Positions 636 through 63,929 of a stretch of 64,000 nt of DNA are shown here, in pieces; within the stretch, counting starts at the first letter, position 1, and each line of letters starts with the position of its first letter. The DNA comes from a virus, in IMG/VR virus record IMGVR_UViG_3300031521_000042, positions 11,883-75,882 of that record. One strand, written 5' to 3'. Position numbers and translations under genes: made by a program. Under the pieces are notes generated by a model. That model saw only the letters and a program-made list of their open reading frames with translations. It was not told where the DNA came from and ran no database searches.

Positions 636-657
636 AAACAAATTAATAAAATAATAT

Positions 658-686
658 TTGACATGTGTGATCAAAAGGAGTATATT
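658..686 (+). promoter_or_regulatory. SigA-type promoter
   Basis: TTGACA(658)-17 bp-TATATT(681). Confidence 0.6.
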
Positions 687-807
687 ATAGTTAGGGGGAT
701 AGTTTAAGGTCGCTCCTTAGATGATAAGAGAAACATCAATCGCTCTTCCCTACTAAATTTAGGATTGATAAACAAATTAAAATACATATTGAAAGGATTG
801 ATTATTA

Positions 808-1860
808 ATGGAGAAAAAAATTTACGAAGAAGAGTTGCCACATAGAGGAAAACATATTGATTGGAGGAAAATTAAAAATGATAATATTAAAATAAATTTT
901 ATTTATAATGAAATAGAAGGGCATATAAATATATTGGAAATAGAAACAATAGGTAAAAAGAATTATGCTACAATCCAATATAAAGAAATAGTTTATACCT
1001 TAGATATAGAAAATTTAAAGAAATGTAAATTAGGTAAATTATTAAAAGTTAATAATTCTGAATTTAAAATTAAAAATGAATATAATATAAAATTATCAAA
1101 AGAAAAAGTAGGTGAAATAAATTATAACAATAATGGAGAGAAAATGACAATAATTAAATATAATACATATAAAGATATTGTAATTGAATTTGATAATGGT
1201 AATATAGTAAATACAAGATATGATAATTTTAAAAATGGTGAAGTAAAAAATACTTCTATACCAATAATATTTAATATAGGATATATGGGTAATGGTAATT
1301 ATAGTAGTAAAGATGAAAATCATAGAGAAACACAAGAATATATAAAATGGAGGTCTATGATAAGAAGATGTTATGATGAGAAATATCAAGAAAAACATAC
1401 CACCTATCAAGGATGTACAGTAGCAGAAGAGTGGCATAACTTTCAGAATTTTGCACAATGGTATAATGATAATTGTTATAAAGTTGGAAATGAAAAAATG
1501 GAACTAGATAAAGATATCCTTATAAAAAATAATAAAATATATTCTCCAAATACATGTATACTTGTTCCTCATGATATTAATATATTGTTCTTAAAGAGAA
1601 ACGCAAGTAGAGGACAATATCCAATAGGTGTAAGTGAATATAAAAATAATACTTCAATAGTTTATAAAGCTACTTGCAAAAACACATTATCCAATAAAAG
1701 TGTTCATTTAGGATATTATCCAACTCCAGAGAAAGCTTTTGAAATATATAAAAAATTTAAAGAAAAATATATAAAAGAAGTGGCTGACAAGTATAAAGAC
1801 AGAATACCATACAATCTTTATAGTGCGATGTATAATTGGAAGGTTGAAATTACAGATTAA
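808..1860 (+). CDS. HNH-like homing endonuclease with C-terminal AP2-like DNA-binding domain
   Basis: Phage HNH-like motifs YIKWRSMIRRCY..YQGCTVAEEWHNFQNFAQWY..LDKDILIKNNKIYSPNTCILVPHDIN; AP2-like tail HLGYYPTPEKAFEIYKKFKE. Confidence 0.7.
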   Translation: MEKKIYEEELPHRGKHIDWRKIKNDNIKINFIYNEIEGHINILEIETIGKKNYATIQYKEIVYTLDIENLKKCKLGKLLKVNNSEFKIKNEYNIKLSKEKVGEINYNNNGEKMTIIKYNTYKDIVIEFDNGNIVNTRYDNFKNGEVKNTSIPIIFNIGYMGNGNYSSKDENHRETQEYIKWRSMIRRCYDEKYQEKHTTYQGCTVAEEWHNFQNFAQWYNDNCYKVGNEKMELDKDILIKNNKIYSPNTCILVPHDINILFLKRNASRGQYPIGVSEYKNNTSIVYKATCKNTLSNKSVHLGYYPTPEKAFEIYKKFKEKYIKEVADKYKDRIPYNLYSAMYNWKVEITD

Positions 1861-1980
1861 TTTAGCAAAATAAGTCCATATTTACCCTTGTATGAGATTA
1901 AAGGTATTAGTTGTTGTCTAAAATTAGAACGTCTTAGAGAGTCGAATGAAGGCATTTAAACCCTATATATAAATATATGA

Positions 1981-2011
1981 TAAGAGTAGTAGAAATATTA
2001 CTCTTATTTTT
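1981..2011 (+). terminator. Intrinsic terminator
   Basis: taagagtagta-gaaa-tattactctta followed by a T-run. Confidence 0.65.
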
Positions 2012-2180
2012 ATGTTTTGAATTATATTATTAAGTATAGTATTAATATAAGAATTATATTAGAAATGTTTTTAGCAAAAGTGGTAATTGTACTGTAAATA
2101 ATAAATTAATGTATAAGTAATTGACAAATATTAAGTATTGGATTAATATGGTATTAGGAAGAAAAGAAAGGAGGAAGAGT

Positions 2181-3038: not shown

Positions 3039-3282
3039 AAAGAAAAATCACTTTTGCGTAAGCTAAGATTATTCTTGATAGATTTAGTAATATAGTTATT
3101 TAGTATTATTGTTTAACTTCAATCTAGACTGTCCCGAGCATACATAGAAAATACCTAAGTATGCGTCCAGCACCGTTTTTATTGTTGAGAGATAACCTAG
3201 ATATGCGTTCAGGCTAAAATGAACTTTTTGACTTGGTAGTTGTAGTTAAAATTATACAAATAATAAATTAATGTATAAAGTG

Positions 3283-3311
3283 TTGACAATGTTAAATAAT
3301 AGGAGTAGAAT
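3283..3311 (+). promoter_or_regulatory. SigA-type promoter
   Basis: TTGACA(3283)-17 bp-TAGAAT(3306). Confidence 0.65.
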
Positions 3312-4180: not shown

Positions 4181-4255
4181 ACACTTGATAAAATAGTGAT
4201 TTTAGACGGAAAATAATAAATTAATGTATAAAAATAAAAGGGAGATGTATTAAAA

Positions 4256-4462: not shown

Positions 4463-4498
4463 TAATAATAAATCAATGTATATAAAGGAGATGATTAA

Positions 4499-5071
4499 AT
4501 GATTAGTATTGCTTTTGATCTTGACAATACAATTCTTAATACACCAGCTAGTATAATAAACTTACATAATAAATTGAATAAAGATAATAGAATAGACTAC
4601 GATGAGAATACAGTAATTGATTGGAAGTTTAGACCTGTTGTTAAAACCGATGATGAGTTAGCAGAATTATTTAAATTATTTGACCATAAATATTTTTATA
4701 GACATGCTATAGTTTATAAATGTGCTAAAGATATTATAAATGGTTTATCTAAAAAGAATAGAATCTGCATCATTAGTAAACATATGGATAGTAGGAAGCC
4801 CTTAACTAAAGAATGGATTAATAAGACTTTTCCAAGAGTTGAATTGATTTTTGTAGACAATTTTGAGGATAAAGGTAAGGTGTTAGAAGGTTATGATTTA
4901 ATAGTGGATGATAGAATAGATGCTTTAGAGAGTTGTTTCAACATACCTTATAGAATATGCTACGGTGATAATGAATGGAGTCAAGATTGGTATGGATTAA
5001 GAGCAACCAATTGGAATGAATTATATAAAATGATTAAAAATATTAAAGACACAATAGAAAAGATAAAATAA
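4499..5071 (+). CDS. HAD-family 5'(3')-deoxyribonucleotidase (NT5C-like)
   Basis: N-terminal IAFDLDNTI (DxD motif I) and IVDDR (motif IV); SD aaggag. Confidence 0.8.
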   Translation: MISIAFDLDNTILNTPASIINLHNKLNKDNRIDYDENTVIDWKFRPVVKTDDELAELFKLFDHKYFYRHAIVYKCAKDIINGLSKKNRICIISKHMDSRKPLTKEWINKTFPRVELIFVDNFEDKGKVLEGYDLIVDDRIDALESCFNIPYRICYGDNEWSQDWYGLRATNWNELYKMIKNIKDTIEKIK

Positions 5072-5949: not shown

Positions 5950-6313
5950 TCATGTATATAAATTTAAAGGACAAAATGAGATAGTTTTGACTCTAATTTA
6001 AGTTTTAGAGTGGACAAGGTAGAATAAGTCTAGTTGATAATTTAAACTCAAATAGAGCCTAAAGTATTGATTTAAGTAAATACTTTATAAAATGAATTAG
6101 TTTGAGTTATATTTCAGAATAAAAAGGAGAGTAATGCAATTTATCGTTAATCGAACTAGAATAGAAATTAGAGTTAAAAGTATGTCAAAAAGTCCTTTAA
6201 AATTATATAGGAAGTCAGTATGTAAAGATGGCTATAACAAATTAATGTATAAAACAAAGTTTAAAATGCGTGTTTTATTGGGAAATATAAATCAAAGGAG
6301 TCAAATAAAAATA

Positions 6314-7894
6314 ATGAAAATAGGTAACTTAGAAGTGTATGGTATTATATACAAAATAACAAATATAATTAATGATAAAGTCTACATTGGACAAACCACA
6401 AGAGAGAACGGGTTTGATGGCAGATATTATTGTAAAGGTAAAGGTATTGAAAGAGTTTATAAATATCACAAAAATAGTAAAGAACGTTTTGATGACTATA
6501 ATGAACATTTATTAAATTCTATAGAAAAATATGGTTTTAATTCTTTTGAGGTAAATGAAATATTTGATATAGCATTCAGTAAAGAAGAACTGAACATTAA
6601 AGAAAAATGTTGGATTGGGATATATGACAGCAATATTAGACAATATGGATATAATTTTACAAATGGCGGGGATAATGGGAAAAGAAGCAAAGATTCAAAA
6701 ACGTTACAAGGAACAAAAATAAAATGTATAGACAATAATATGGATTTTATTTCATATATCGAAGCAGTTAAATATTTTGAAAACATTGGAGTAGAAATAT
6801 CTGTAAAATGGATAAAAGATTCTCTAACATTAGATTATAAAAAGTATAAAGGGTATAAACCAATGTTTAGGATAGTAAAAGATTATATGGATAATAAATA
6901 TTGTTGTAATAATTGTGGTAAATTGATAAGCAATAAAAACAATACAGATGATGATTTTTTATGTACAAGTTGTAGGACTAGATGTTTTAATATACCAAAT
7001 TTTAAAATAGAAAATGATGTGAAAAAATTTATCTTAAATACATATAACAATAATAATTCTGAAACAAACATAAAAAACATAAAGAAAAATATAAAATCAA
7101 TATTTAACAGAGACGTACCTAATTGTATAATTAAAGATTTTATAAAATATAATAAATTTTTAATTACTTATAATACTAATAAAATTGAAAAGAAAAATAC
7201 TAAATTAAAAAAGACATATAATAAAGATTATAAAGTACATATAAATAATGTTAATTTGATAGATGAAGAATTAAAAGAAATAATATTTAAATTAAATGAA
7301 AGCATTCCATCATGTAGTAAAATATCAGATAAATTAAAAACAGAGTATTCTATAGTTATATCTTCAAAAATAATAACAACTTTTTTAAAAAATTGTTATC
7401 TAAATAATGAAATAAAATATAATGATACAATAACATCTAATAAAAAAGAAAGAAGTAATAATGTTTGTAATGATAACAAAGAAAAAATATTAGAATCATT
7501 AGAGGAACAAATTTGTTCTTTGTATTTACAAGGTAAAAACGTATCCAATATAATATCTAAAATAAACATAAAAGGAATACATCATCAAGATATAAATAAC
7601 ATATTAAATCAAAATAACATAGACATACGTAATCAAAAATATGATATTAAAAATATAAGCTATATTGGTGTATATAAAAATAATGATTTAGTAATATGCT
7701 TCAAGTTTAAATGGGAATGTAGGGATTGGTTAGTAAAATTAGAATTAGCTAAAACTGATTATATAGCTAAAAATATAATTAATTCTACGCTAGATAAAGA
7801 TAAGGAATATCAAGGATATAAATTTAAAACATCTGATAATTATCAATATAACTCTTATGTTGATAATTTAGAAAATATAGGAAGTGAGTGTTAA
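6314..7894 (+). CDS. GIY-YIG homing endonuclease with Zn-finger and HTH-like C-terminal modules
   Basis: VYGIIYKITNIINDKVYIGQT..ELNIKEKCWI..GYN. Start moved to ATG 6314, after SD aaaggag (6294-6300). The upstream in-frame extension from 6134 contains non-coding regulatory motifs. Confidence 0.8.
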   Translation: MKIGNLEVYGIIYKITNIINDKVYIGQTTRENGFDGRYYCKGKGIERVYKYHKNSKERFDDYNEHLLNSIEKYGFNSFEVNEIFDIAFSKEELNIKEKCWIGIYDSNIRQYGYNFTNGGDNGKRSKDSKTLQGTKIKCIDNNMDFISYIEAVKYFENIGVEISVKWIKDSLTLDYKKYKGYKPMFRIVKDYMDNKYCCNNCGKLISNKNNTDDDFLCTSCRTRCFNIPNFKIENDVKKFILNTYNNNNSETNIKNIKKNIKSIFNRDVPNCIIKDFIKYNKFLITYNTNKIEKKNTKLKKTYNKDYKVHINNVNLIDEELKEIIFKLNESIPSCSKISDKLKTEYSIVISSKIITTFLKNCYLNNEIKYNDTITSNKKERSNNVCNDNKEKILESLEEQICSLYLQGKNVSNIISKINIKGIHHQDINNILNQNNIDIRNQKYDIKNISYIGVYKNNDLVICFKFKWECRDWLVKLELAKTDYIAKNIINSTLDKDKEYQGYKFKTSDNYQYNSYVDNLENIGSEC

Positions 7895-8089: not shown

Positions 8090-10861
8090 ATGGAAAATAA
8101 AAATGTTCAAATATTATCGATAGAAGGAAAAGATTTAATCACAAAAAAATATGAAGTTAACAAGAATTCTATATATAAAGCTAGTTTAGATGATGCTATG
8201 GAAGTTGATGAATTAAAAAGGTTAAATAAAAAAATAATCAGTTATAATAAAAATAAAAAAAGGTTTTACAGTGATGATATTATGACAGTCACATTTAAGT
8301 ATGCTTGTAAGCAAGAAAGAGATTTGACAGATGAAGAATATGAAAGAGTTCAAAGTTTAGAATTAACCTTACGACTATTAAATGATAAAGTAATAATAAA
8401 AGAAACAAAAGAGTTATTACAAATTGCAAAAAGAAATATAAATAAAAAATCTATTAGAGAACAGATATATAGATATGGATTCAACATATATATAAATGGA
8501 AAACTAAAGCATTTTGTAAGGTATAAAAGATCTAGTGGAAGTGCAAGAGCAGGTAAATGTTTATTTATAAATGAAAAGTATTATAAACATATGATAGATT
8601 GGTCTTTTGCAGGAATACCACATGAAGAAGATATTGAAATGGATTGTGCATCAACGGAATCTTACATTGCACTTCCAACATCATCATGTGTTGACAGATT
8701 TAGATTAAGACCAGAAAATATATTGTTAATAGAAGATGGAAAGTCAACTTTTAATAATAAAGTAATGGCTACTAGATTTATTAATGAAGAAAAAGACGAA
8801 GATGGTAATGTAATAAATGGAGACTTAGATACTAATGTAGAAGAAGCAGAAATAACTAATAAAATATGGGATGGAGAGAATTTATTAGATAGGAGTATAT
8901 TTGAAACTAAAGGATATATGCAAGGAATGATTATAAGAAATCCTTTATTTAAGAATGTATTTAAAAGATATAAAGATAAGGCTATTTTACAAGTTAGAAA
9001 TAGAATGTTTAAAGGTATAGGTGTTAATACAGATATACAACAGTTTTTCAAAGATAATGGAATAACAGATATATCACAATTAAATGGACAAACTATTGCA
9101 ACAGACATAAAACAAATCAAACTAATAACTACTCCATCAAGCGTCAAATATTTAAAATATGGTACATTTGATAATTGGTTAAAGCAAATTATATTAGAGT
9201 GGGGTATTTGTAAATATGAAAAACCTCAACATCATTTCAATGGTATGGTACAGACTCATTATCAGTTAATAAATTCACTAGGAATGAATAAAGAAACTAC
9301 ATATGACTTTCTAAAAGATACGATTAACTACATAAACTTATTAAAAACAGATACGGCAGTATTTAAATATCATTTAGGATTAACTGGAGAAAATAACAAA
9401 GAAGAATTATCTAACAATATTCAAACCAATTCAGATTTTATATTAAACATGCTAGAAATAAATGATGACTTTATAAATACAAAGATTTGTAAAAACTTTA
9501 GAAATGAAGTTGTTAAAAGTTACACAAATAATGCTCGTCATGGTCACATACTTGTAGAAGGGAATTATTCAATAGTAGTATCTTCACCCTTAGAGTTTTT
9601 AAAAGCTAGTATAGGTCAATGGAAGGGAGAAACTTTAATTCAGCCTAATGAATGTGTTAGTAGTAAGTTTGAAGTAGGGGAGGATGTTTTAGGAGTAAGA
9701 TCTCCACAACCAACTATGTGCAATATGAATGTATTTAAAAATACTAAATATAAAGAATTAGATAAGTATTTCAATACAAAAAGTCAAGAAGTTATATATA
9801 TAAGTGCTATTGGGTGGAACATATTTGAATTAGAGAGTTCTATGGATGTAGATGGGGACTCCATGATGCTAACAAATAATAAATATATAACAGAATCAGG
9901 TAAAAACTTATTAGAGAAAATAGTAATAAATAAAAAAGAAATAGATAGATTCTTAGTATCTACTGACTTTACTCCTAAGTTGAGTATAAACAGAAAATAT
10001 AATTGGAAAGACTTAGCTGATACAGATATTAAATGTAGTAGTAATAAAATAGGTGAAATAATAAATCTTGCACAAATGCTTAATAGTGTATATTGGGATA
10101 AGAAATTTAAAGGTGCTAGTGAAGAATATTTATTTTCATTATATAAGGATATTTGTCAATTAAATATTTTATCTTGTATTGAAATAGACCGTTGTAAAAA
10201 ATTGAGTCCAGTAGATGCAAAAAAAGAATTGGATAAAATAAGGAGAAAGGGATATCTAAGTCGTGGGAATATAACTAGAGAAAAAGAAAAGAAAGAAGTT
10301 GGGATTAGACCTTATTTCTTTAAGTTTTTAGATGGGGGAAAGGATTATAAATTTAAAAAGTTTCATACAGGCATGGATTATTTAGAAGAAGTTTTAGATG
10401 ATTATGTTAAAAGAAAAGATGAAAATAGTTATGACGTACCTTTAGTAGACGTATTGGAAAAACAAAAAATAAATAAACAAGATAATAAAATAATAGATAA
10501 AATAAAAAAGAAAAGTAAAGAATTAAAATATCACCAAGCTAAAATATGGAATAGCGAATGTGAAAACAAATGGGAACTAAATAAAGACTTACACGATTCA
10601 ATATTAAATGATATAAAAAAAATACAAATATACCCATCTACCATATACACTATCTTATTGAGAATACATAAATCATTTACTAGCAATAAATATGACGAAT
10701 ATAAACAAATAGGAAAAAGGATAATGACCTTATTATATGAGTCTAATAAATTTGAATTTATAAAATGTATAAAAATAAATACTAAAAATAAGTCATTTAT
10801 AATTGAAACAGATGATGGAAATATAAATTTATATGGGATAAATTTTGAAAAAATAGGCTAA
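8090..10861 (+). CDS. yonO: YonO-like single-subunit DNA-dependent RNA polymerase (cellular RdRP-related fold)
   Basis: 923 aa; RSSGSARAGKCLFI, IWDGE, QVRNRMFKG, THYQLINSL, VRSP, catalytic SMDVDGD (about 9842-9859), IGEIINLAQ, IEIDRCKK. It lies upstream of HU and the late genes, as in SPbeta. Confidence 0.88.
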   Translation: MENKNVQILSIEGKDLITKKYEVNKNSIYKASLDDAMEVDELKRLNKKIISYNKNKKRFYSDDIMTVTFKYACKQERDLTDEEYERVQSLELTLRLLNDKVIIKETKELLQIAKRNINKKSIREQIYRYGFNIYINGKLKHFVRYKRSSGSARAGKCLFINEKYYKHMIDWSFAGIPHEEDIEMDCASTESYIALPTSSCVDRFRLRPENILLIEDGKSTFNNKVMATRFINEEKDEDGNVINGDLDTNVEEAEITNKIWDGENLLDRSIFETKGYMQGMIIRNPLFKNVFKRYKDKAILQVRNRMFKGIGVNTDIQQFFKDNGITDISQLNGQTIATDIKQIKLITTPSSVKYLKYGTFDNWLKQIILEWGICKYEKPQHHFNGMVQTHYQLINSLGMNKETTYDFLKDTINYINLLKTDTAVFKYHLGLTGENNKEELSNNIQTNSDFILNMLEINDDFINTKICKNFRNEVVKSYTNNARHGHILVEGNYSIVVSSPLEFLKASIGQWKGETLIQPNECVSSKFEVGEDVLGVRSPQPTMCNMNVFKNTKYKELDKYFNTKSQEVIYISAIGWNIFELESSMDVDGDSMMLTNNKYITESGKNLLEKIVINKKEIDRFLVSTDFTPKLSINRKYNWKDLADTDIKCSSNKIGEIINLAQMLNSVYWDKKFKGASEEYLFSLYKDICQLNILSCIEIDRCKKLSPVDAKKELDKIRRKGYLSRGNITREKEKKEVGIRPYFFKFLDGGKDYKFKKFHTGMDYLEEVLDDYVKRKDENSYDVPLVDVLEKQKINKQDNKIIDKIKKKSKELKYHQAKIWNSECENKWELNKDLHDSILNDIKKIQIYPSTIYTILLRIHKSFTSNKYDEYKQIGKRIMTLLYESNKFEFIKCIKINTKNKSFIIETDDGNINLYGINFEKIG

Positions 10862-11388
10862 ATTTAAGGAAAAAATATTTTGCCATATGGTCTAAGATAA
10901 GTAGTAGAGCCACTTACATAAGATTAAACTTTGAGGGATTATGGTAGAAGAGTATTTCTATCGAAAATAATTAGATGTTGCAACAATATCAAAGTCTAAT
11001 TCAATTTGTTAAGGAGGATTTATGATAATACCAACTTAATAAGTGGGTGATTGAATTATTTAATTACCCACAACAAAACAAATTAATATAACAATATAAG
11101 ATATCATCGCTTTAATTAGCGTTATATACCAACGCCCTTAAGTGGGCGAAACACCCAATACTTTTAATTTTTTCCCACATCTACCTTTATAATTATTTTA
11201 ATCTCTCTCCTGACATTGGCAAGATACAAACAGGTATTCTTGCCTTGTTGGAGAAAGAAAATATAAGTGATATGAATTGAATGGTAAATTTCAAAATAAA
11301 TTAATGTATAAAACAATGCTTAATTCAACTGAAAAAGTTGTTTTAAAATAAGCGTGACTGCTGAAAACGTCAATAGGAGGAATAAACA

Positions 11389-11955
11389 ATGTATTGCAAA
11401 ATATGTAAGAAAGAAAAATTAGAACAAACATTTTACAAAGGATTTAAAGAATGTAAAGATTGTTTAAAAGAGCATCTAAATAAATTACCTAATACCGTAA
11501 CTTATGAAAAAGTAAAAGAGTTATTACAAAATAATAACTATGTTGTTAATGAAGAATTGTTACATAGTATTTTCTTTAGTGATGAAGATAATGTAAGAGA
11601 AAAAAATAATATTGGTAGATTAGGTCATTATTTAAAGGATATAAATACTCTTCCACAATATAATAAATATAGAATTAAAGTTGTTGAAAAATCAGATATA
11701 GAATTTATAAATGATGATATTAAACAATTAAAAAAGAATATAGAAAAAGCAATTCAAAAAGAAGATTTTAATGCTCATAATAAATGGATGAATTGTTTAA
11801 GAGATGCTATTGAATTAAGAGAAACATTACTAGGAGGTAGTAAATATACTATTAATCTAGGTACTGTTAATGTAAATAGTAATAATGGTATAGAGTTTTT
11901 AAATGAGGTACTTGAATTAGCCAATCAGAAAGCAAGTTTAAAAAGTTATAAATAA
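11389..11955 (+). CDS. Zn-finger protein paralogous to the N-terminal domain of the putative small terminase
   Basis: CKIC..FY..CKDCL and YLKDINTLPQY match CTKC..FY..CKDCL and YIKTINSLKNY of ORF 22624. Confidence 0.6.
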   Translation: MYCKICKKEKLEQTFYKGFKECKDCLKEHLNKLPNTVTYEKVKELLQNNNYVVNEELLHSIFFSDEDNVREKNNIGRLGHYLKDINTLPQYNKYRIKVVEKSDIEFINDDIKQLKKNIEKAIQKEDFNAHNKWMNCLRDAIELRETLLGGSKYTINLGTVNVNSNNGIEFLNEVLELANQKASLKSYK

Positions 11956-12179
11956 ATTAACTTAAAATATAACTTTTATAAGCTATATAATAAATTAATG
12001 TATAAAGAAATAGTGAATAATCAAAGAGTGTTCTTGAGTGAATGAGATTTAAGTCCACACAAAAAGAATCACCTTTGTAATTATAAGTAGAAGTTCTAAG
12101 TGGTTTATCTTAAAGCCACTTTCCATAATCCCTAAATAGGGAAATAAATTAAAAACAAAGAGAGAAAGAGGAGATTATT

Positions 12180-12491
12180 ATGAAGAAAGAACAAGTAATT
12201 GAAGTAATTAAGGAAACATTAGGACTAGAAAGTAAAAAGGAAATAGAAGGTAAGTTTGCTGAATTTGATAAAGTTATTAAAGCAGTAGTAGAAAAACTAG
12301 AAGTAGGAGATAAAGCTAAAATTGGAAGTTTTGTTGAAGTGGAAAAGAAGCATGTTGAAGCTAAACATACAGATGCTAGAGTAGGACGAAATCCAAAAAC
12401 TGGAGCAGAAGTTCAAATAGAAGCTAAGGACTATCTAGCATATGATAAAGTAACAATTAAAGCAACTAAAGCTTTAAGTAAAGCAGAATAA
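12180..12491 (+). CDS. hup: HU/IHF-family DNA-binding protein (YonN-like)
   Basis: Arm motif RVGRNPKTGAEVQI; 103 aa. Confidence 0.9.
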   Translation: MKKEQVIEVIKETLGLESKKEIEGKFAEFDKVIKAVVEKLEVGDKAKIGSFVEVEKKHVEAKHTDARVGRNPKTGAEVQIEAKDYLAYDKVTIKATKALSKAE

Positions 12492-12545: not shown

Positions 12546-12623
12546 ACAACAAATTAATATAAAAATAAAAGGTTAAAATAATAATATGGTAGTTAGACTA
12601 CTGGGTGGAAGTGGGTAAAAATT

Positions 12624-13865
12624 ATGGAAAAGATAAAATTTTATGATACAAATATATTGCTACATAGTTTAGATATAATAGAAGGAAAAATTTATATTTC
12701 AAGTGTAACCCTTAGTGAATTAGAGAATATAAAAATTTCTGGAAATAAAGATGAACAAGTTAAATTTGAAGCTAGAAAAGTAACTAGATTTTTAAGAGAA
12801 AATGAAGACAGTTATGAATGTATAGTAGTAGAAAAGAAACATTATAAATTATTAGAAAAAATGAATTTACCAATTGACAACGACAACCTAATAATAGCTT
12901 GTGCTAAATTATTAGAAAAGAATTATGAAGTTGAATTTGTAACAGATGATATTTGTTGTTATAACATAGCTAGATTGATGGCAAACTTAAAATGTAGTGG
13001 AATTAAGTCAGATAATAAATTTCAAGAATACAAAGGCTATAAGTCTATTATAATGTCAGATGAAGATATGGCTAAATTTTATGAACAAGAAAATAAAGAA
13101 AACATTTATGGATTATTAATAAATGAATATTTAATTATAAAAAACACATTAAACGAACCAGTTGATGCATGGAAATATATCGGTGATAGATTTGGATTTG
13201 TACAATTAGATGTAAAAAATATACAAAGTAATATGTTAGGTAAATTAAAAGCTAAAGATTTTTATCAACAATGTGCATTAGACAGTTTTTACAATAATAC
13301 AATTACTGTAGTTAAAGGAAGAGCTGGAAGTGGTAAATCACATTTAGCAATGAATTTCTTATTTAGTCAAATGGAAAAAGGTAAAATTGATAAAATAATT
13401 ATGTTTATCAATGATGTACCTGTAAGGGGTGCAAATTTACATGGTTTTCTTCCGGGAGATTTAAAAGACAAACTTTTAGAGTCTCAAATAGGTAATTTTT
13501 TAACAGGTAAACTAGGAGATAAAATGCAAATAATCAATCTAATGTCTATGGGAAAACTTATGCTTTTACCAGTTTCAGACTTGCGTGGATTTGATAGTTC
13601 GGGAATGAATTGTGCAGTGTACATTACTGAAAGTCAAAACATGAGTATAGATATGTTAAAACTTTGTATGCAAAGAATTGGTGAGGATGGAATTTGCATC
13701 ATAGACGGTGATTCTGAAACCCAAGTAGATAACAGACTTTATGAAGGCTCGAATAATGGTATGAGAAGACTTTCAGAAGTGTTTAGAGGACAAGATTTAT
13801 ATGGTGAAGTTGAATTAAATGAATGTTATAGAAGTAGAATTGCAAAAATTGCAGAAGAAATGTAA
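12624..13865 (+). CDS. phoH: PIN-PhoH (PhoH2-like) RNase/ATPase
   Basis: PIN motifs FYDTNILL and DNDNLII..FVTDD; Walker A GRAGSGKS; HGFLPGDLKDKL, LRGFD, TESQN, DGDSETQVD, YRSRIA. Confidence 0.88.
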   Translation: MEKIKFYDTNILLHSLDIIEGKIYISSVTLSELENIKISGNKDEQVKFEARKVTRFLRENEDSYECIVVEKKHYKLLEKMNLPIDNDNLIIACAKLLEKNYEVEFVTDDICCYNIARLMANLKCSGIKSDNKFQEYKGYKSIIMSDEDMAKFYEQENKENIYGLLINEYLIIKNTLNEPVDAWKYIGDRFGFVQLDVKNIQSNMLGKLKAKDFYQQCALDSFYNNTITVVKGRAGSGKSHLAMNFLFSQMEKGKIDKIIMFINDVPVRGANLHGFLPGDLKDKLLESQIGNFLTGKLGDKMQIINLMSMGKLMLLPVSDLRGFDSSGMNCAVYITESQNMSIDMLKLCMQRIGEDGICIIDGDSETQVDNRLYEGSNNGMRRLSEVFRGQDLYGEVELNECYRSRIAKIAEEM

Positions 13866-14946: not shown

Positions 14947-15029
14947 AAACTGCATGAAGTAGAAAATGGTTCTCTACACACTCGAAAGAGTATCTGAGAT
15001 GATGGATACACCGACCATCCATGCAGTTT
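14947..15029 (+). ncRNA. Candidate cloverleaf-like ncRNA (element B)
   Basis: 10-bp closing helix aaactgcatg/catgcagttt with three hairpin arms, including actc-GAAA-gagt. Confidence 0.6.
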
Positions 15030-15492: not shown

Positions 15493-15580
15493 GTAGGATT
15501 GGGTGAGTGGCTTAAACCGTTTGTTTGCTAAACAAACGTACAAATATGTACCACAGGTTCAAATCCTGTATCCTACGCCA
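15493..15580 (+). tRNA. tRNA-Ser (GCT)
   Basis: Acceptor stem GTAGGAT/ATCCTAC + G + CCA; D-arm GGTGAGTGGCTTAAACC; anticodon arm TTTGT-TTGCTAA-ACAAA; long variable arm; T-arm ACAGG-TTCAAAT-CCTGT. Confidence 0.95.
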
Positions 15581-18004: not shown

Positions 18005-18688
18005 ATGAATTATAAAGAAAAAATAGATAAAATAATTGGGATTATCTTAAATTCCGTAGAAAATGAACTATCATCGAATCTAATTCTAGATAGCGAAATT
18101 GCATATGATATTGCCAAAGAATTATTATATAAGTTTGATGCCAACTTTGAATATCAGGATAGCAATATTTTTGATGAATTATTAGAAGAAAATGACATAT
18201 TATCACTGTTTACTACATGTAGTGAAGATGGGAAGGTTAGACATTTCTTAGGAACAATTTTTGATAATGATGGAATGACTTATCCAGACGAAGATTCTGA
18301 TATTATTTATATTCAAGATAGTTTATATGACTGTATTGATACAGATGTTTTTGAAGGGCAAGTTTCTATATTAGTTGATGATGTAGAAGAATTTAAAAAC
18401 ATTGTTAAAGCGTTGAAAGAAGACGAAAATGAAGAATGTGATAGTGACTGTTCTAATTGTCCTTATAATGATGATGAAGATTACGAAAAAGAAATTGAGG
18501 AAGATCCAATAGAAGTCTTACTTGGAGAACTATTAGATACTTTATCAGAAATAAAGCCAAGTGATATTAAAGGATTTAATATTGCACTTAGAGATAAATT
18601 AATTGAGTCTTTTGAGATGGGCTTAGATGAAGGTTATGAAAATGCAGTTGAAGAAATTAAAGAAACTTTAGATGGTATGAGATATTAA
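18005..18688 (+). CDS. Acidic hypothetical protein (YonH-like position)
   Basis: 227 aa, very Asp/Glu-rich, CDSDCSNCP motif. Confidence 0.65.
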   Translation: MNYKEKIDKIIGIILNSVENELSSNLILDSEIAYDIAKELLYKFDANFEYQDSNIFDELLEENDILSLFTTCSEDGKVRHFLGTIFDNDGMTYPDEDSDIIYIQDSLYDCIDTDVFEGQVSILVDDVEEFKNIVKALKEDENEECDSDCSNCPYNDDEDYEKEIEEDPIEVLLGELLDTLSEIKPSDIKGFNIALRDKLIESFEMGLDEGYENAVEEIKETLDGMRY

Positions 18689-18749
18689 CAAATTAATGTA
18701 AAAGATATGTTTTATAAGGTTTTTAATTAAAAAATGAGGAGATAAGATT

Positions 18750-20016: not shown

Positions 20017-20040
20017 TTGAGTTAGGAGGTAGAATATAGT

Positions 20041-35299: not shown

Positions 35300-35436
35300 T
35301 GTAAAAACAAATTAATGTATAAATAAGAGTTGATAAATCAGTTCTTTTATTGGGTTTTTAGGTTTTAAGAATGGGGCTATAACTGGGTTTGTAAAATATA
35401 AAATATAAAATTAATATATGGAGGTGGTAGTAAATT

Positions 35437-36288: not shown

Positions 36289-36328
36289 TTAAAATATAAA
36301 ATAAATTAATATAAAGAGGTGATTATTA

Positions 36329-40063: not shown

Positions 40064-40471
40064 TTGTATGTATGAAAATAATGAATAAATTGAAAATATA
40101 CATGAAAAGAACTTAGTACAAAATGTGTGTTAGGTTCTTTTTTTGCGTGGATTTATAAGGTTGGAATATAAATAACAAATTAATATATAAAGTATTGACT
40201 TTGTTTTTAATTGGTAGTAATATGTAATTAAGTTATTAACAAATTAATATACAAAGTCAATACATAAATTTAAATTATATACTGCAATGATACTATTCCT
40301 TTGGTATCAAATTTATTAGTGAATACATAAGGAGTAATTTATGACTAAGGGTAGCTCCCTTAGTCAGATTATTCTAACTAGTAAAGGTAAAAAAAGGAAA
40401 GTAGTATGATTGGAATATATATGGAAACATATGTATTCACTAATAAATAAATTATAAGGAGATGTTTCAAT

Positions 40472-44542: not shown

Positions 44543-44576
44543 GGTTAATGAGTATAAAATATGTAAGACTAGCGAG

Positions 44577-45248: not shown

Positions 45249-45487
45249 AATATTTCACCTCTTTATATGTATACTATACCATAGTGAATACAAAAATTCA
45301 ACTTTAAATATAAAATATTCAATATAGTGTTGACTTTATAAACTAGAGAGTGTATAGTGTAATTATGGTAAACAAATCCAAGCTTACCAAATAAAAATAA
45401 GGCAATAACAAAACTGTTATCACCAAATCCCTCAACAAGATTAATGATAACACATGTTTGAGCCTAATTCAAGGGAGAGATGTTATT

Positions 45488-46012
45488 ATGGGACAAGTAT
45501 TAACAACAGAAAATGAAATAGGAATAAACAAGCCAATAGAAGAATTCTTTAATAGACTAGAAAATGGAGATTATAAAGTAATATTATATAATGGTCAAAT
45601 GCCATTAATGAAAGATAATTTAGCTGAATCTATGATAGAATTAATTACTAATGATTTAGATAGATACAGTAAGATAGAATTAATAAGTAATGACGCAATG
45701 GTCATACATACAGGTTCGGAAACAATTGAATTAAAGGGTTATAAGGATATGAGTGATGGAGAAATATTTGCTAGACAATATTTAGATACTTGTGAATATG
45801 AAGATTTAATCGTAAAAGATTCTTTGGAACAAGATGAGTTCAGAGATGATAATTTTAAGGATACTAAAGATTACTATAATAGATGCAAATATATAACTAC
45901 TATAAGAACAGTTCCAGAAGATAGTGAACATTATAATATGAATTGGGATTGCATTATAGTAGGGTTTGAAGACGATGATAATTTTTTTGAACAAATTTGG
46001 CAAAGAGCGTAA
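45488..46012 (+). CDS. Hypothetical acidic protein
   Basis: ORF after SD gggag; TTGACT-17 bp-TATAGT promoter at about 45330; terminator at 46045-46072. Confidence 0.6.
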   Translation: MGQVLTTENEIGINKPIEEFFNRLENGDYKVILYNGQMPLMKDNLAESMIELITNDLDRYSKIELISNDAMVIHTGSETIELKGYKDMSDGEIFARQYLDTCEYEDLIVKDSLEQDEFRDDNFKDTKDYYNRCKYITTIRTVPEDSEHYNMNWDCIIVGFEDDDNFFEQIWQRA

Positions 46013-46209
46013 TTTACTAGTATATAATTAATATAAAAGTATTTAGAACCTAGATATTCTAGGTTCTTTTTTATCCAACATTAAAAATATAACTTCATAT
46101 AAAACATAGATTTTAAGTAATAATTTATTTCATTTATACTCATTGACTTTTATACCATAATATGAAATAATTAACATATAATTTAAACTTTTATAAGGAG
46201 ACAAATTAT

Positions 46210-46968
46210 ATGTATTGTAAAAATTGTGGTATAAAAGTCAATGAAGAACAAGAAAATTGTTCAAATTGTGGAAATAAAAATACTGACATTAAAGTGATTC
46301 GTGAAATAAAAGAAATAAATAAAACCATTTTAATAGTAATATCTTTATTAATATTAGGATTATTAATTCTCGCTATATCTATAAATAGTATTAATTGTTT
46401 AATGATAGTAGTTTTATTTTTCTTTATGTGTTTAATTGCTTTAATTTTGGGAATGGTAAATCCCAAAATTGTTATAAAGTGGGGAGATTTAGAAAAAATA
46501 AATAGAAAAAATGTAATTAAATATTATGGAATAGGAGCAATAGTTCTTTATGTTCTTACAAGAGGTTGTGCAATTATTATGGTTAATAATTCTATGACTT
46601 CTTTACAATCATCATCTGCTATTTATTCTCAGCAAGGCACGACTCAAATAATAAAAGTTACTCCCAAAGAATTAAGTGATGATTATAAAGCAAATGAAGT
46701 AAATGCAGATAATAAATATAAAGGTAAGATTGGAGTTCTTGCTGGAAAAATATATAGCATTAGTGTAAGTGGTGGAAATCCAGTAATTAGCTTGGTTAAC
46801 ACTAATGATAAATATGAATATACAATAGCAGACGTACAGTGTCATTTTGATGATAATAGTCAATCTACTAAAATAGCGAATTTGTCAAAGGGGCAAATTA
46901 TTACTATAAAAGGTATTGTTGATGGATATTTTGTAAGTGTATCAATGGATCATTGCACAATACAATAA
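46210..46968 (+). CDS. Membrane protein: Zn ribbon, transmembrane helices and OB-fold (tRNA_anti-like) domain
   Basis: MYCKNCG..CSNCG; three hydrophobic segments; ELSDDYKANEVNADNKYKGK..LSKGQIITIKG. Confidence 0.75.
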   Translation: MYCKNCGIKVNEEQENCSNCGNKNTDIKVIREIKEINKTILIVISLLILGLLILAISINSINCLMIVVLFFFMCLIALILGMVNPKIVIKWGDLEKINRKNVIKYYGIGAIVLYVLTRGCAIIMVNNSMTSLQSSSAIYSQQGTTQIIKVTPKELSDDYKANEVNADNKYKGKIGVLAGKIYSISVSGGNPVISLVNTNDKYEYTIADVQCHFDDNSQSTKIANLSKGQIITIKGIVDGYFVSVSMDHCTIQ

Positions 46969-46984
46969 TTTTAAAATAATTAAT

Positions 46985-47022
46985 AAAAAAGATTATCTAA
47001 ATAATTTAGATAATCTTTTTTA
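46985..47022. terminator. Bidirectional intrinsic terminator
   Basis: aaaaaagattatctaaa-taa-tttagataatctttttt. Confidence 0.7.
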
Positions 47023-47047
47023 TTATGTCTAAAAAGGAGGTTATACA

Positions 47048-49042
47048 ATGGCAAATGGTAGTGATATGACTTTATCGGCTAAACTAGAAGTCAAAGACTC
47101 TTTTACCAGTCAGTTGAACAAATTTAAGAATGCATTAAATAATACCGAGAATGCATTTACAAAATTTGTTAATAAAATAGATCAATCAAGCCAAAAAATG
47201 GAGAAAACTCTTGATAATATTAACAAAAAGATGGAACAAACATCTAATAAGATAATATCTCAAGGTGACAAAGTTGCTAATTCTATAATTAAATCATCTG
47301 ATAAAGTAGAACAAAGACAAAATAAAGTAACAGAAGATTTATTAAAAAAATATACAAAAATGGGTGGAGATATTCAAACTATTTTTAAAAATGTTCAAAA
47401 GGAAGCTGACCAATTAAATAAAACAGGAGTAAAAGTAAATTTTAATGGTGGTTCTAATAAATTAAATAATGGTAGTGGTAGTAATGGAATTTTAGGTGAT
47501 TCTAAATCTGAAAGTTTTTTAACTGCATTAATAGGTGGAAACTTTACAAGAATGTTAGGTACTCTAGGAATAATAGGTGGTGCTATTACAGGTGCTACTA
47601 AAATTTTAACAACTTTAGATGGATGGGCACAACAAGGATTTAATGCTATTAATACTTTATCAACTGGATTATTAAGTGTTAATGGTTTAAAGGATGCTGT
47701 AAATACTTCTAGTGAATTTGAAACAAATAGAGTTGCTTTAGATACACTTTATGGTAATAATAAACAAAAAGGTCAAGAATATTATCAAATAGGAACAAAA
47801 TTAGCGAAAGAAACACCATATTCAGAGTCGGATGTTGGAGCTTTGCAAAAGAAATTAGCAGGTTCAGGCGTCGAATACAAGTCTCAAGATTTAATGACAA
47901 TCCTCGATATGGCATCTGTAAAACCTGAACTTGGTGCAGAACATGCTGGATTTAGTATAATTGATGCAATGTTCGGACGTACAACTTCATTAAAAACAAA
48001 TTATATGATTGATAGTAAAGAAATGCAAAAGTATTTAAAAAAATTAAGTAAGGGTAATTCTAATGATAAAGCTAATGCTAAAAGTTGGAAGGATGCTTTT
48101 AATGCTAAAGGAAGTGTTAATAATAAACAAGAATATTTTGATTTATTGATTGACTATGTGCAAAAAGAAACATCATTTAATGGATTAACAGAAAAATATT
48201 CTCGTACTATGTCAGGTATGATGGACAGGCTATCAGGTAACTGGGAAACTTTAAGAGCTGATTTATTAGGTATAGATGCTAATAACACAGGTATGGTTAA
48301 ACCAGGAAAAATAACTGTATTTAGTGCCTTAGAAGATGGAATGAAAAATATAGAAAAATGGCTTAGTGATGATAGTACAAAAGTTCTATTAGATGATGTA
48401 GGAGAAGGTTTAGGAAAGGCAATAAATGCAATATCAAACTCATTGAGTAATTTTTTGAAAAAGGTTGATTGGGACAAAGTTGGAAAAGTATTTGAAAAAA
48501 TTGGAGACTCTATTGCGAAACTTATAGATAAAATAACCTCAAGTCCTGAATTTATGAAACTTATAGATGATTTACCTACTCTTATTGATAAAACACTTAA
48601 TAATAAAGTTGTAGATACAACTACTGATATCAAAACGGGAACTGATTTAGCAAATGGTGATGTTGTTGGAGCAGGAATAGATTTAGTAAAAGGTAAAACA
48701 GATAAATGGTATAACCTTATTGGAAGTAATTCGGGAGAAGAAGGGGCTGATACAGAATCTTGGAGTAATAAATTAGTATATACCCTTCAAGGAGTCGCTG
48801 GAACACAAAGTTATAACAAAGCGGCACATTCAGCAGATGATTATTTCTTTTTAACAGATGCAAACGCAAGTACAGTTTTATCAAATAATCCTACTTTAAA
48901 TGATAATCAAAGAGAACAAATTCAAGATATGATGAAAAAAGATAATACACCAACATATAACGTAACGATAGGTACAATACAAGCGAATAGCTTTGATGAA
49001 ATAGTATCTTCTTTGCAAAAATATCAAACTAATAAAAAATAA
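47048..49042 (+). CDS. Tape measure protein
   Basis: LSAKLEVKDSFT start, helical Ala/Gly-rich body, tape-measure motif FET....L..L......AKETPY; upstream of the LysM baseplate gene. Confidence 0.8.
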   Translation: MANGSDMTLSAKLEVKDSFTSQLNKFKNALNNTENAFTKFVNKIDQSSQKMEKTLDNINKKMEQTSNKIISQGDKVANSIIKSSDKVEQRQNKVTEDLLKKYTKMGGDIQTIFKNVQKEADQLNKTGVKVNFNGGSNKLNNGSGSNGILGDSKSESFLTALIGGNFTRMLGTLGIIGGAITGATKILTTLDGWAQQGFNAINTLSTGLLSVNGLKDAVNTSSEFETNRVALDTLYGNNKQKGQEYYQIGTKLAKETPYSESDVGALQKKLAGSGVEYKSQDLMTILDMASVKPELGAEHAGFSIIDAMFGRTTSLKTNYMIDSKEMQKYLKKLSKGNSNDKANAKSWKDAFNAKGSVNNKQEYFDLLIDYVQKETSFNGLTEKYSRTMSGMMDRLSGNWETLRADLLGIDANNTGMVKPGKITVFSALEDGMKNIEKWLSDDSTKVLLDDVGEGLGKAINAISNSLSNFLKKVDWDKVGKVFEKIGDSIAKLIDKITSSPEFMKLIDDLPTLIDKTLNNKVVDTTTDIKTGTDLANGDVVGAGIDLVKGKTDKWYNLIGSNSGEEGADTESWSNKLVYTLQGVAGTQSYNKAAHSADDYFFLTDANASTVLSNNPTLNDNQREQIQDMMKKDNTPTYNVTIGTIQANSFDEIVSSLQKYQTNKK

Positions 49043-59093: not shown

Positions 59094-59098
59094 TAGGG

Positions 59099-61161: not shown

Positions 61162-61248
61162 TAAGTAAATTATAAAGTAAATATATAGATATGATATTTA
61201 ACACCTATATAGGTGTTTTTATTGTCTAAAATTAAAGGAGGAATAATA

Positions 61249-63435
61249 ATGGCTATAGAAATTATAGACGAATTAACTCAAAAAAATGGTGGCAATTTCC
61301 CCATTACGAGAGCTAGTAAAATTGCGTATAGCAATACTGATTCAACAGTAAGTATTAAAGATAAAATAGATACAATAAATTCAAACATATCTACACATAT
61401 AGACGATACAATTTCTCACGTAAATTCATCTGATAAAATAAATTGGAGTGATAAATATACTAAATCAGAAATAGAAAATAAGATAAGTGCTGTTGTGACT
61501 AGTTTAGATTATAAAGAACATGTAGCTACATTTGCAGATTTATCTACAACTTATCCTAGTCCTCAAGATGGATGGACAGTTAGTGTGGATGCTGATAATA
61601 TTACATATAAATACAATGGCACTATATGGTTTCCAGTATCAGCAAATTCTATACCAATGGCAACAGAGAGTCTTGATGGTAAAATGTCTAGTGTTGATAA
61701 AACTAAAGTAAATGGAATTAGTACAAATGCTAAAAAAGTTGAGTCAAGTTCAATAAATGGAAATATAAAAATAGATGGTACTGAAACAAATGTTTATACA
61801 CATCCATCTACACATTTGCCTAGTATTATATCTCAAGATGCAAATAACAGATTTGTAACCGATGCAGAAATAACAACATGGAATGCAAAAGCTAATCAAA
61901 GTGATTTAAATACAACTCTTGATAAAATTGGAGTTTTAAGTGATTTACCTACTACAGATAAGACAAGTTTAGTAAATTCTATAATAGAAACTAACGAACA
62001 ATTGTCCCATATTGTACAGGTATTTGCATCAAGTTTTGGTGCTATTGGAGATAATAACACAGACAATGCTACAGCTTTTCAAAATCTATCTTCTTATGTA
62101 AATACACTTACAGGGAAATCAAAAGTAGAAGTTATATTTCCCAATGGAACATTAAAATATAGTAATGGGTTAAATTTCACAAAAGAAGTTAAATTAAAAG
62201 GAACATTAGGGAGTATTTTAAACTATGTTGGTACTGGAAAAGCAATTTCATTAGGTAGGGATAATGTAACAAATACTGATTATTTTGATAACCAAAATTA
62301 TGAAGTTGATGGAATTACTTTTACTGGTGGAAATACAATGACATATGGAATATATTTCAATAAACACGTTACTATGCCAAGAGTATTAAATTGTAAATTT
62401 TTTAATTTTGGTAATAGTTCTGCTTGGGGTATATATTTTGACGACAATAATTGGGACGCATTTGTTCATAATTGTAGTTGGTTTAATCCCCCAACAGGAT
62501 TAACAGGTTTAAAATGGATTGGAATGTCACCTTTTGCAAATACAAGAGTTAGGATTTCAGATTGTTTAGCAAGCAATCTAAGTGGATGGGGAACAGCTAT
62601 CTATTTAAATGGATATAACTGTATTGTTCATAATTGTAAAATTGAAGGTTTTCAAACTTGTATTAGACTTGGTGGATATTCTAATTACTCAAAAATAACA
62701 AATTGTTATTTTGAAAGTGCAAATAATGATGTTGATGGTGTACACCATGGTTGTATTGAAATAGGAAGTATAACTGGTGAAGTTGGTGAAAATCTATGGG
62801 CTGATAATTTTGCAATTGAAAACTGTTATGCTAATCTTCATAATGATGGAACAAAAAATGAACATTTCTTAGCAACTACAAAGATAACACAAGGTTTAAA
62901 ATATGTTTCGTTAAAAAACATTGGTGTATCAAGTTGTGGTCAAGAATTTATATATCAAAATGATATAGGGTCACAAATTGGCAATAGAGCAAGTGGATGT
63001 TATGGTTATACTTTATTCCATACTCAAAACACAAGTGAAGAATGGGGCGATGTAAATGGTGGAAATGAAACATATAAAAATAATGCTGATAAATCGGCAT
63101 ACTTTGCAATTCAAAGTGGTAAAACAGCTACCCAATATGCAGGATTTAAAATAAATGATTATGATGGCTCACAACTTTATTCGGTAAGAAGTAATTCTAT
63201 TAAAAATATAGAATTTTTAGCGGGATTAGTAAATTATTTTACAGTTACTACAAATGGAGTGGGTTATTTTCACAAGACATTGTATGGTGATGGGGCAATC
63301 GGTGCTAATATTTTACAACTAACTGCAAGACATGCTCAAGATAGTGCTATAACAGTTGGAACACTATTTGAAGATAGTGCTGATAATAAACTAAAATATA
63401 AAAAATTTGATGGTACTGTAATTACAATAGGCTAA
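61249..63435 (+). CDS. Tail spike / receptor-binding protein with pectin-lyase-like beta-helix (possible depolymerase)
   Basis: FGAIGDNNTDNATAFQ..FPNG start of a right-handed beta-helix; start moved to ATG 61249, after SD aggagg. Confidence 0.75.
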   Translation: MAIEIIDELTQKNGGNFPITRASKIAYSNTDSTVSIKDKIDTINSNISTHIDDTISHVNSSDKINWSDKYTKSEIENKISAVVTSLDYKEHVATFADLSTTYPSPQDGWTVSVDADNITYKYNGTIWFPVSANSIPMATESLDGKMSSVDKTKVNGISTNAKKVESSSINGNIKIDGTETNVYTHPSTHLPSIISQDANNRFVTDAEITTWNAKANQSDLNTTLDKIGVLSDLPTTDKTSLVNSIIETNEQLSHIVQVFASSFGAIGDNNTDNATAFQNLSSYVNTLTGKSKVEVIFPNGTLKYSNGLNFTKEVKLKGTLGSILNYVGTGKAISLGRDNVTNTDYFDNQNYEVDGITFTGGNTMTYGIYFNKHVTMPRVLNCKFFNFGNSSAWGIYFDDNNWDAFVHNCSWFNPPTGLTGLKWIGMSPFANTRVRISDCLASNLSGWGTAIYLNGYNCIVHNCKIEGFQTCIRLGGYSNYSKITNCYFESANNDVDGVHHGCIEIGSITGEVGENLWADNFAIENCYANLHNDGTKNEHFLATTKITQGLKYVSLKNIGVSSCGQEFIYQNDIGSQIGNRASGCYGYTLFHTQNTSEEWGDVNGGNETYKNNADKSAYFAIQSGKTATQYAGFKINDYDGSQLYSVRSNSIKNIEFLAGLVNYFTVTTNGVGYFHKTLYGDGAIGANILQLTARHAQDSAITVGTLFEDSADNKLKYKKFDGTVITIG

Positions 63436-63461
63436 TAATTAAAGTATAGGAGGAATATATA

Positions 63462-63734
63462 ATGGCAATTAGCAAAAATATAAATCTTAATAATGGTTTA
63501 GAAATAAATGATGCATATTTAAGAATATGTTTATTGAGTGGAAATAAGGATAATATAAATATTAATTTATGTAGTTATCTTTCACAAGAAGCATTTCAAC
63601 AAGGTAAAGAATGGTTAGAAATTAAAGAATATAATTTCGTACCAATTACAACCGACACATCTTCAAACTTTATAAAACAAGGATATGATTATTTAAAAAC
63701 ACTTGATGAATATAAAGATTCAGTAGATTGTTAG
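63462..63734 (+). CDS. Small spike-associated protein
   Basis: NFIKQGYDYLKTL.EY motif, commonly found downstream of spike genes. Confidence 0.6.
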   Translation: MAISKNINLNNGLEINDAYLRICLLSGNKDNININLCSYLSQEAFQQGKEWLEIKEYNFVPITTDTSSNFIKQGYDYLKTLDEYKDSVDC

Positions 63735-63929
63735 TTTATACGCAATAGGAATAATAAGTTCGTAAGATTTCTAAAAGAAGATATTTAATTTATTTTAATT
63801 TATCTTCTTTTTTCTCTGTAAATATAAACAATAAAATAAATTAATAAACAATTGACTTCTTTTACTAAAAAATGTTATATTATATATAGAATAACAAATT
63901 AATATAATAAGTAAAGGAGTTAAGTAATT

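Follow-up and report, generated by a model that had tools for sequence, protein, structure and literature searches.

A repeated, one-way intergenic box in an uncultured peat virus contig as a candidate operator of an MrpR-type lysogeny repressor

Why should a short AT-rich box recur between the genes of one virus contig, always pointing with transcription and in places ending four base pairs (bp) before a −35 hexamer? The question is raised by a stretch of 64,000 nucleotides (nt), hereafter the window, which covers bases 11,883 to 75,882 of the 75.9-kb linear IMG/VR record IMGVR_UViG_3300031521_000042 (G+C 26.7%; CheckV completeness 31%). The 24 runs that contain the window, kept as contigs, are all peat metagenome DNA, five of them with 92–94% of the sampled words, and no near-identical DNA was found in the phage collection searched. 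A sequence-only reading of the window had described the element as 14 bp long and had given it two possible identities: the operator of a phage-wide master regulator, like the SPbeta repeated element (SPBRE) bound by MrpR, or a promoter element of the YonO polymerase. We favour the first. The box is probably the docking site of a lysogeny master repressor with an integrase fold, of the MrpR/YopR/SroF type. A signal of this kind is already known from SPBRE and MrpR, and what is new is most likely its setting, in uncultured peat phage-plasmids.

The 14-mer AAATTAATGTATAA occurs in seven exact copies, at 2103, 3265, 4218, 6239, 11298, 11992 and 35309, all on the + strand, and every near copy that had been listed with them is present as described. 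Dinucleotide shuffles give a mean expectation of 0.04 exact copies, and none of 100 shuffles reached seven, in agreement with the earlier rough estimate of well under one chance copy and with enrichment over a shuffled background. A weight matrix across positions −5 to +14 finds 17 strong sites (at least 14 bits) on the + strand, against 0.27 expected from a second-order Markov model. All are intergenic and point with transcription, and the same matrix finds no site of at least 14 bits on the − strand of the window. The sole good minus-strand copy in the contig lies outside the window, at genome position 1305 (13.8 bits), and stands 15 nt before a minus-strand gene; the orientation of the box therefore follows the gene and not the strand of the replicon.

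The conserved unit is about 20 bp, rather than 14, and reads T-AAYAAATTAATRTA-t-AAA-g. Beyond the 14-mer, whose position 9 is a purine in every case, it extends by three bases on the 5′ side (AAY) and by about four on the 3′ side (t-AAA-g). What the window carries is thus an asymmetric, AT-rich box, within the 15–26-bp range, at many intergenic places of one phage. Weaker candidates (11–13 bits) lie at 774, 5065, 31284, 38423 and 60469, and the exact AAATTAATATATAA at 35932 falls inside a gene and is not preceded by AAY. In the weight-matrix scan, the long structural-gene blocks at 20.8–35.3 kb and 44–63 kb hold no boxes. The sites and the promoter matches beside them are these:

637..657, + strand: box, near copy AAATTAATAAAATA (site 640), 14.8 bits; 4 bp before a −35 hexamer
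658..686, + strand: sigmaA-type promoter match TTGACA-17-TATATT, 11 of 12; upstream of the HNH endonuclease gene 808–1860
2100..2120, + strand: box, exact (site 2103), 22.2 bits; 4 bp before a −35 hexamer
2121..2149, + strand: sigmaA-type promoter match TTGACA-17-TAATAT; upstream of an HTH_36/DnaD-like gene
3262..3282, + strand: box, exact (site 3265), 23.6 bits; 4 bp before a −35 hexamer
3283..3311, + strand: sigmaA-type promoter match TTGACA-17-TAGAAT, from the promoter-match scan
4215..4235, + strand: box, exact (site 4218); abuts a ribosome-binding site, 24 nt before the ATG at 4256
4467..4487, + strand: box AAATCAATGTATAT (site 4470), 18.1 bits; abuts the ribosome-binding site of the NT5C nucleotidase gene 4499–5071
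6236..6256, + strand: box, exact (site 6239), 25.3 bits; heads the operon of the GIY-YIG endonuclease (6314–7894) and the YonO-like polymerase (8090–10861)
11077..11097, + strand: box, near copy (site 11080), 20.1 bits
11295..11315, + strand: box, exact (site 11298), 22.5 bits; 77 nt before the gene 11389–11955
11989..12009, + strand: box, exact (site 11992), directly 3′ of a TTAAAA-18-TATAAT match; upstream of the HU-like gene 12180–12491
12548..12568, + strand: box, near copy (site 12551), 21.2 bits; upstream of the PIN-PhoH gene 12624–13865
18687..18707, + strand: box AAATTAATGTAAAA (site 18690), 21.3 bits; upstream of the gene 18750–19106
35306..35326, + strand: box, exact (site 35309), 24.2 bits; upstream of the virion-protein-like gene 35437–36288, with TTGATA 7 bp on
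36300..36320, + strand: box, near copy (site 36303), 17.8 bits; runs into the ribosome-binding site of the neck/tail-completion gene 36329–36754
40174..40258, + strand: box–promoter–box cassette (box 40177, 4 bp, TTGACT-17-TAATAT, box 40241); upstream of the Rha-domain gene 40472–41434
63835..63913, + strand: box–promoter–box cassette (box 63838 abuts TTGACT-17-TTATAT at 0 bp; box 63896 abuts the ribosome-binding site of the last gene)

The register to the −35 hexamer had been called fixed. At 640, 2103, 3265 and 40177 the 14-mer does end exactly 4 bp before TTGACA or TTGACT, but the distance is 0 bp at 63838 (TTGACT) and 7 bp at 35309 (TTGATA). Three of the four 4-bp sites accompany matches that are among the top sigma-70-type matches (10–11 of 12) on the + strand of the first 20 kb, and they are the sole intergenic ones there. 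The two boxes of a cassette are 64 bp apart at 40174..40258 and 58 bp apart at 63835..63913. The box at 11989..12009 directly follows its TTAAAA-18-TATAAT match and would therefore cover the predicted start site. Site 6239 is intergenic once the GIY-YIG start is moved to 6314, a correction that the sequence-only reading had made and that we can confirm: the ATG at 6314 follows an AAAGGAG ribosome-binding site and leads straight into the GIY…YIG motif, and PHROG homology begins only at residue 69 of the long open reading frame. This endonuclease gene sits between the box and the YonO gene.

Is the box peculiar to this contig? Relatives, contigs with several copies each, were found by an IMG/VR scan for the 18-mer, and at least ten further contigs of peat viruses show enrichment of the box. 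Counts of AAATTAATRTATAA are 6–14 per contig in five contigs, versus 0–1 for the reversed control, with similar enrichment in four more. Seven contigs hold 109 box matches (87 sites in eight contigs once shared contexts are counted once), and 101 of the 109 are intergenic, the coding density of the contigs being 73–87%. Among the sites in one-way gene gaps, 82 of 89 point with the genes (p = 2e-17). Two layouts recur, in which the box abuts either a sigmaA −35 hexamer or a ribosome-binding site, and they are often paired as box–promoter–box cassettes. A −35 hexamer follows 22–30 sites, the gap from the 14-mer to TTGAC(A/T) being 4 bp in 13 of 21 (range 3–7), while 26 sites run into a ribosome-binding site. 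Neighbouring co-oriented boxes cluster at separations of 58–69 bp, and for 15 of the 16 pairs that are 50–75 bp apart a TTGNNN-16/18-TANNNT promoter lies between the boxes. The densest array of the box family encountered here is that of a 196-kb contig with terminal repeats, IMGVR_UViG_3300042923_000619 (G011), which has 124 copies of AAYAAATTAAT; 71 copies stand in one-way gaps and share the orientation of the flanking genes, and there is a sharp peak 17–26 nt before start codons.

SPBRE offers a measured precedent, since chromatin affinity purification sequencing (ChAP-seq), electrophoretic mobility shift and reporter assays established it as the operator of MrpR (PMC10516654). We took the SPBRE word from the regions upstream of yonP, yonX, aimR, yonT, yopV and yopM, all genes with MrpR ChAP-seq peaks (Kohm et al., PMC10516654). 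The word so derived, ACAAATACAAAWAATATGTATAWAA, has the core ATGTATAWAA in common with the box of the window. Its layouts are also those found here, where boxes stand at early promoters, including that of the YonO operon. In SPbeta, TTGACT (aimR) or TTGATT (first yonX site) follows 7 bp after ATGTAT, a distance that is 6 bp in the window phage; at yopM, yopV and the second yonX site SPBRE runs into the ribosome-binding site; and the two yonX copies stand 64 bp apart around a promoter, the very spacing of 40177 and 40241. Moreover, SPBRE heads yonP–yonO, as box 6239 heads the GIY-YIG and YonO operon. The shared core, the two layouts and the 64-bp pairing support well the idea of an SPBRE/MrpR-like operator for a phage-wide master regulator.

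The same idea gains from the proteins, for phages with the same box do encode members of the MrpR family. A protein of 385 residues (P0002) is encoded by the contigs G007, G012 and L171, with an 89% identical one in L172, and all four carry the box of the window. The Pfam profile MrpR_N_CB matches this protein in G007 and a 397-residue protein in G003, with direct-scan scores of 24–33 bits where the cut-off is 27. MrpR_C_cat is carried as well by database homologues of 31–61% identity, and there are homologues with PF22822 and PF22823. An AlphaFold model of the relatives' protein (16 sequences; predicted local distance difference test score, pLDDT, 82) has YopR, MrpR and SroF chains as its top six Foldseek matches, and integron integrase, XerA, lambda Int and Cre rank behind them. 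Judged from the profile matches, the homologues and this model, the 385-residue protein is a member of the MrpR/SroF family, with core-binding and catalytic-like domains and a predicted fold closest to MrpR/SroF. In the related phage G004 a 399-residue homologue lies downstream of integrase-like and yopQ-like genes, in a yopP–yopQ–yopR-like operon that is headed by the box proper to G004. A tblastn search with YopR gave one marginal match only, and no large serine recombinase domain was found. Protein and box compare across the phages as follows:

100% and 89% identity to the 385-residue protein (G007, G012, L171, L172): the box of the window
61–62% identity (G011, L169): a box that keeps AAYAAATTAAT, with the 3′ half changed to AGAA
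28–32% identity (G003, G004): unrelated boxes

How such a repressor might work can be pictured from its best-studied relatives. SroF, which is MrpR under another name, is a monomer that encircles a 26-bp asymmetric box and reads its A-tracts (bioRxiv 10.1101/2025.11.27.690993). The box of the window would be asymmetric, polar and about 20 bp long because a monomer of the SroF type encircles the DNA and reads A-tracts. We propose a catalytically degenerate integrase-fold protein that wraps, as a monomer, around each A-tract-rich box. Where the 3′ end of the box reaches the −35 hexamer, it would keep the host sigmaA RNA polymerase off the early promoter; where the box lies just after a start site or directly before a ribosome-binding site, it would block polymerase that has initiated upstream, in the manner of the stoperators of mycobacteriophage L5; and a box–promoter–box cassette would combine both effects. 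One box heads the YonO operon, so that repression there would leave the late genes silent as well. The window phage would then encode an MrpR-type protein beyond the end of the contig, and this protein would bind the boxes and repress.

Several observations weigh against this proposal. No gene of the MrpR or integrase family was found in the 75.9-kb contig, which is 31% complete, or in the partial same-box contigs G006 and G008, the latter 74% complete. By hhalign, the match of the relatives' protein to YopR is weak (probability 28–64%) and confined to the N-terminal domain; a profile of the MrpR-like protein found no match among PDB sequences; and no direct match to MrpR_C_cat turned up in the five genomes searched. 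The trend of box with protein runs in the right direction, but it comes from few lineages and could follow overall relatedness. Several boxes that abut ribosome-binding sites have no recognisable promoter upstream, and the density of boxes in G011 is as compatible with a promoter or a 5′-leader signal as with a repressor array. It is a tentative possibility that in this lineage of peat phage-plasmids an integrase-fold repressor system expanded from a regulon of ten sites to a dense, polar set of boxes that precedes as many as half of the genes (124 copies in G011), perhaps silencing gene by gene, or that the box doubles as the start signal of an unrecognised phage-specific initiation system.

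A rival explanation, which we consider unlikely, dispenses with the repressor: the box would be a promoter or initiator for phage-specific transcription, independent of YonO, for instance through a phage factor that redirects the host polymerase. On this reading transcription would begin within the 3′ part of the box, and the short leaders would carry the ribosome-binding site. The strict orientation of the box, its invariable purine at position 9 and its lineage-specific variants, of a kind also seen in T7-type promoters, all fit such a role, as do the many boxes that end 5–12 nt before a ribosome-binding site and the peak of G011 copies (124 in 196 kb) at 17–26 nt from start codons. A self-sufficient promoter, however, makes little sense of the box–promoter–box cassettes and of the register to the −35 hexamer. 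Nor was a sigma factor found: a search for the sigma-70 region 2 domain gave nothing in four related phages, one of them 98% complete. Furthermore, the sequence and layout are those of SPBRE, which experiment has shown to be a repressor site (PMC10516654), and both long structural blocks of the window are free of boxes.

The tight coupling to ribosome-binding sites, together with the position of the second cassette box within the predicted leader, would also agree with a box that acts in RNA, either as a 5′-leader site for a repressor of translation comparable to RegA of T4, or as a processing site in polycistronic transcripts. About one-third of the boxes, however, lie upstream of −35 hexamers at the preferred distance of 4 bp, where an RNA role is meaningless, and the SPBRE precedent is one of DNA binding. 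This makes an RNA signal very unlikely.

It is highly improbable that the box is a host-factor site or a specialised UP element boosting early sigmaA promoters. The promoter-linked boxes do lie at about −39 to −57, where an UP element would be, and are AT-rich with A-tracts. Yet only about a third precede a −35 hexamer; for most copies no suitably spaced promoter follows, and several extend into a ribosome-binding site. The box differs among related phages that come from similar samples, and a 19-mer scan of cellular genomes gave single scattered matches only, among the matches listed, with no host or prophage copy identified. A sigma-70 UP element in the −40 to −60 region of a −35/−10 promoter is not found at every copy. 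An extended −10 or T4-late-type −10 can be dismissed, because several boxes run into a ribosome-binding site and leave no room for a start 6–7 nt downstream.

There remains the second identity that the sequence-only reading had proposed, a promoter of the YonO-type polymerase. A YonO-family gene is indeed present, and the motif is phage-specific and directional:

8090..10861, + strand: YonO-family single-chain RNA polymerase, type A (P0001), 923 residues, DVDGD motif; phrog_8308, E 2e-85

We assign it to the YonO family because of the phrog_8308 match, an alignment with SPbeta YonO over 394 columns in which DVDGD stands opposite DNDGD, and the HU-like gene that follows it, as yonN follows yonO. 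The same-box phages, however, have three highly divergent YonO types in one syntenic slot: A in the window, B in G006 and G013, and C in G007. Type B is split into parts of 548, 387 and 262 residues, the first of which matches phrog_8308 (E 4e-73) and is about 21–22% identical to the type-A YonO of G001 and G003; tblastn finds no match between type B and the YonO of the window. Type C of G007 (942 residues; phrog_8308, E 2e-232) was likewise not detected by tblastn with the type-A protein of the window. Conversely, G001, G003 and G004, whose YonO proteins are 60–67% identical to that of the window, show no enrichment of its box word. They have over-represented words of their own in the same two layouts, AACATAAATTAAATATAA in G001, ATATAAAATAAATAG in G003 and AAACAATTAGTCAT in G004. 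The YonO loci lie at 19162–22740 in G006, at 86699–89527 in G007 and at 43442–47094 in G004, where an interruption of about 0.9 kb splits the type-A gene.

Because the box is identical across mutually near-unrecognisable YonO types, yet changed where YonO is 60–67% identical, it is not set by YonO. A box that covaries with the YonO polymerase and marks late operons is not what we found. In addition, the YonO operon is itself headed by a box, and SPbeta YonO uses a single start site (PMC5467207), mapped in the yonN–yonK gap, a region in which a scan with ATATGTAT found no SPBRE. On the phage record that start (168 coordinate 2225998) is fixed only to a primer-bounded interval. A YonO promoter is thus scarcely tenable, being largely refuted by the lack of covariation.

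The docking site of an MrpR-type repressor therefore remains the reading that we prefer. Near two of the boxes there is a second conserved element:

6266..6285, + strand: ATGCGTG-TTTTATTGGG(A/T)TTT, about 14 nt after the box

The TTTTATTGGG element also occurs at 35345–35354, after the box at 35306..35326, and its distance to the box is about 14–20 nt overall. The form ATGCGTG-TTTTATTGGG is kept before the YonO operons of the window phage (G000, type A), G007 and G014 (type C) and G011 (type B), usually just 3′ of TAAAAT or TATAAT, and a related TTTTATTGGGTTTTTA precedes the structural gene at 35437 and the homologues of that gene. It may be a leader or promoter feature.

The gene content gives some idea of the element that carries the box. 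Genes for TubZ-like and MerR-type proteins, a Rep3 initiator and an FtsK/SpoIIIE-like protein lie at the left end of the contig. In contig bases 8229–12483 (window −3653 to 601), the genes for the TubZ-like protein, the MerR-type helix–turn–helix protein and the Rep3-family initiator flank a divergent region. Because of these left-end genes the element looks like a plasmid-prophage, and the contig suggests a phage-plasmid lifestyle, of a type that we take to be like that of Clostridium phage c-st. The earlier claim that such a regulon is undescribed for clostridial phages fits the literature searched, a clostridial host for the window phage being conjectural.

The window also encodes HU-like, PIN-PhoH and ClpP proteins, and its structural genes are those of a contractile-tailed virion. 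Free-standing homing-type endonuclease genes (HNH, GIY-YIG) lie at 808–1860, 6314–7894 and 20823–22577. Downstream of the HU-like and PhoH genes there is a gene-poor stretch bearing a skipping-rope RNA (Rfam RF02924, 70 bits) and a tRNA-Ser(GCT), at 14949–15027 and 15493–15580, respectively, which mirrors the long non-coding yonN–yonK stretch of SPbeta. Among the structural genes, behind the double-box cassette, the Rha-domain gene at 40472–41434 encodes 320 residues with a C-terminal Rha domain; its predicted product is a tightly controlled regulator or antirepressor-like protein.

If the repressor reading is true, the MrpR/SroF–SPBRE switch extends beyond the arbitrium phages of Bacillus to uncultured, low-GC TubZ/Rep3 phage-plasmids of peat with YonO-type polymerases. 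The natural variants of the box, paired with diverged repressors, would be material for learning how a recombinase fold that acts as a monomer can recognise long asymmetric sites in DNA. The network of boxes at early promoters and at the polymerase operon can now be told apart from the question of the YonO promoter, with which it had been merged.

How does this arrangement compare with systems already described? Promoters of the T7, T3 and SP6 type are similarly directional, conserved phage-specific words near the starts of genes, and they too vary from one related phage to another; in the T7 group, however, the promoter covaries with the polymerase, whereas the box of the window does not covary with the YonO-type polymerase.

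Stoperators, reportedly described by Brown et al. in 1997 for the repressor gp71 of L5 and Cluster A mycobacteriophages, come closer in arrangement. They too are numerous asymmetric sites, all oriented alike relative to transcription, that occupy the short gaps between genes in early and late operons and are thought to stop elongating polymerase, but the L5 sites are 13 bp and their repressor is a helix–turn–helix protein. With Phi3TRE and SroF of phage phi3T (structures 9rd5 and 9rgl) the likeness lies in the protein and its mode of binding: a monomer with an integrase fold encircles a 26-bp asymmetric A-tract box, and its chains match the model built for the relatives' protein. The sequence of Phi3TRE is unrelated to the box.

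SPBRE and MrpR differ from the present system in several respects. The 5′ half of the box is different; the sites are denser, with 17 in the 64 kb of the window and as many as 124 in the 196 kb of a relative, versus ten ChAP-seq peaks in SPbeta; and the relatives' proteins are some 60–70 residues longer than YopR (325 residues) and match the Pfam model in the N-terminal domain only. SPbeta is, moreover, an integrated Bacillus siphovirus, whereas the element studied here appears to be a TubZ/Rep3 phage-plasmid of peat with contractile-tail genes. Even so, both have asymmetric, AT-rich intergenic boxes that point with transcription, both use them in the two layouts, at −35 hexamers and at ribosome-binding sites, and both keep a YonO gene in synteny with an HU-like gene.

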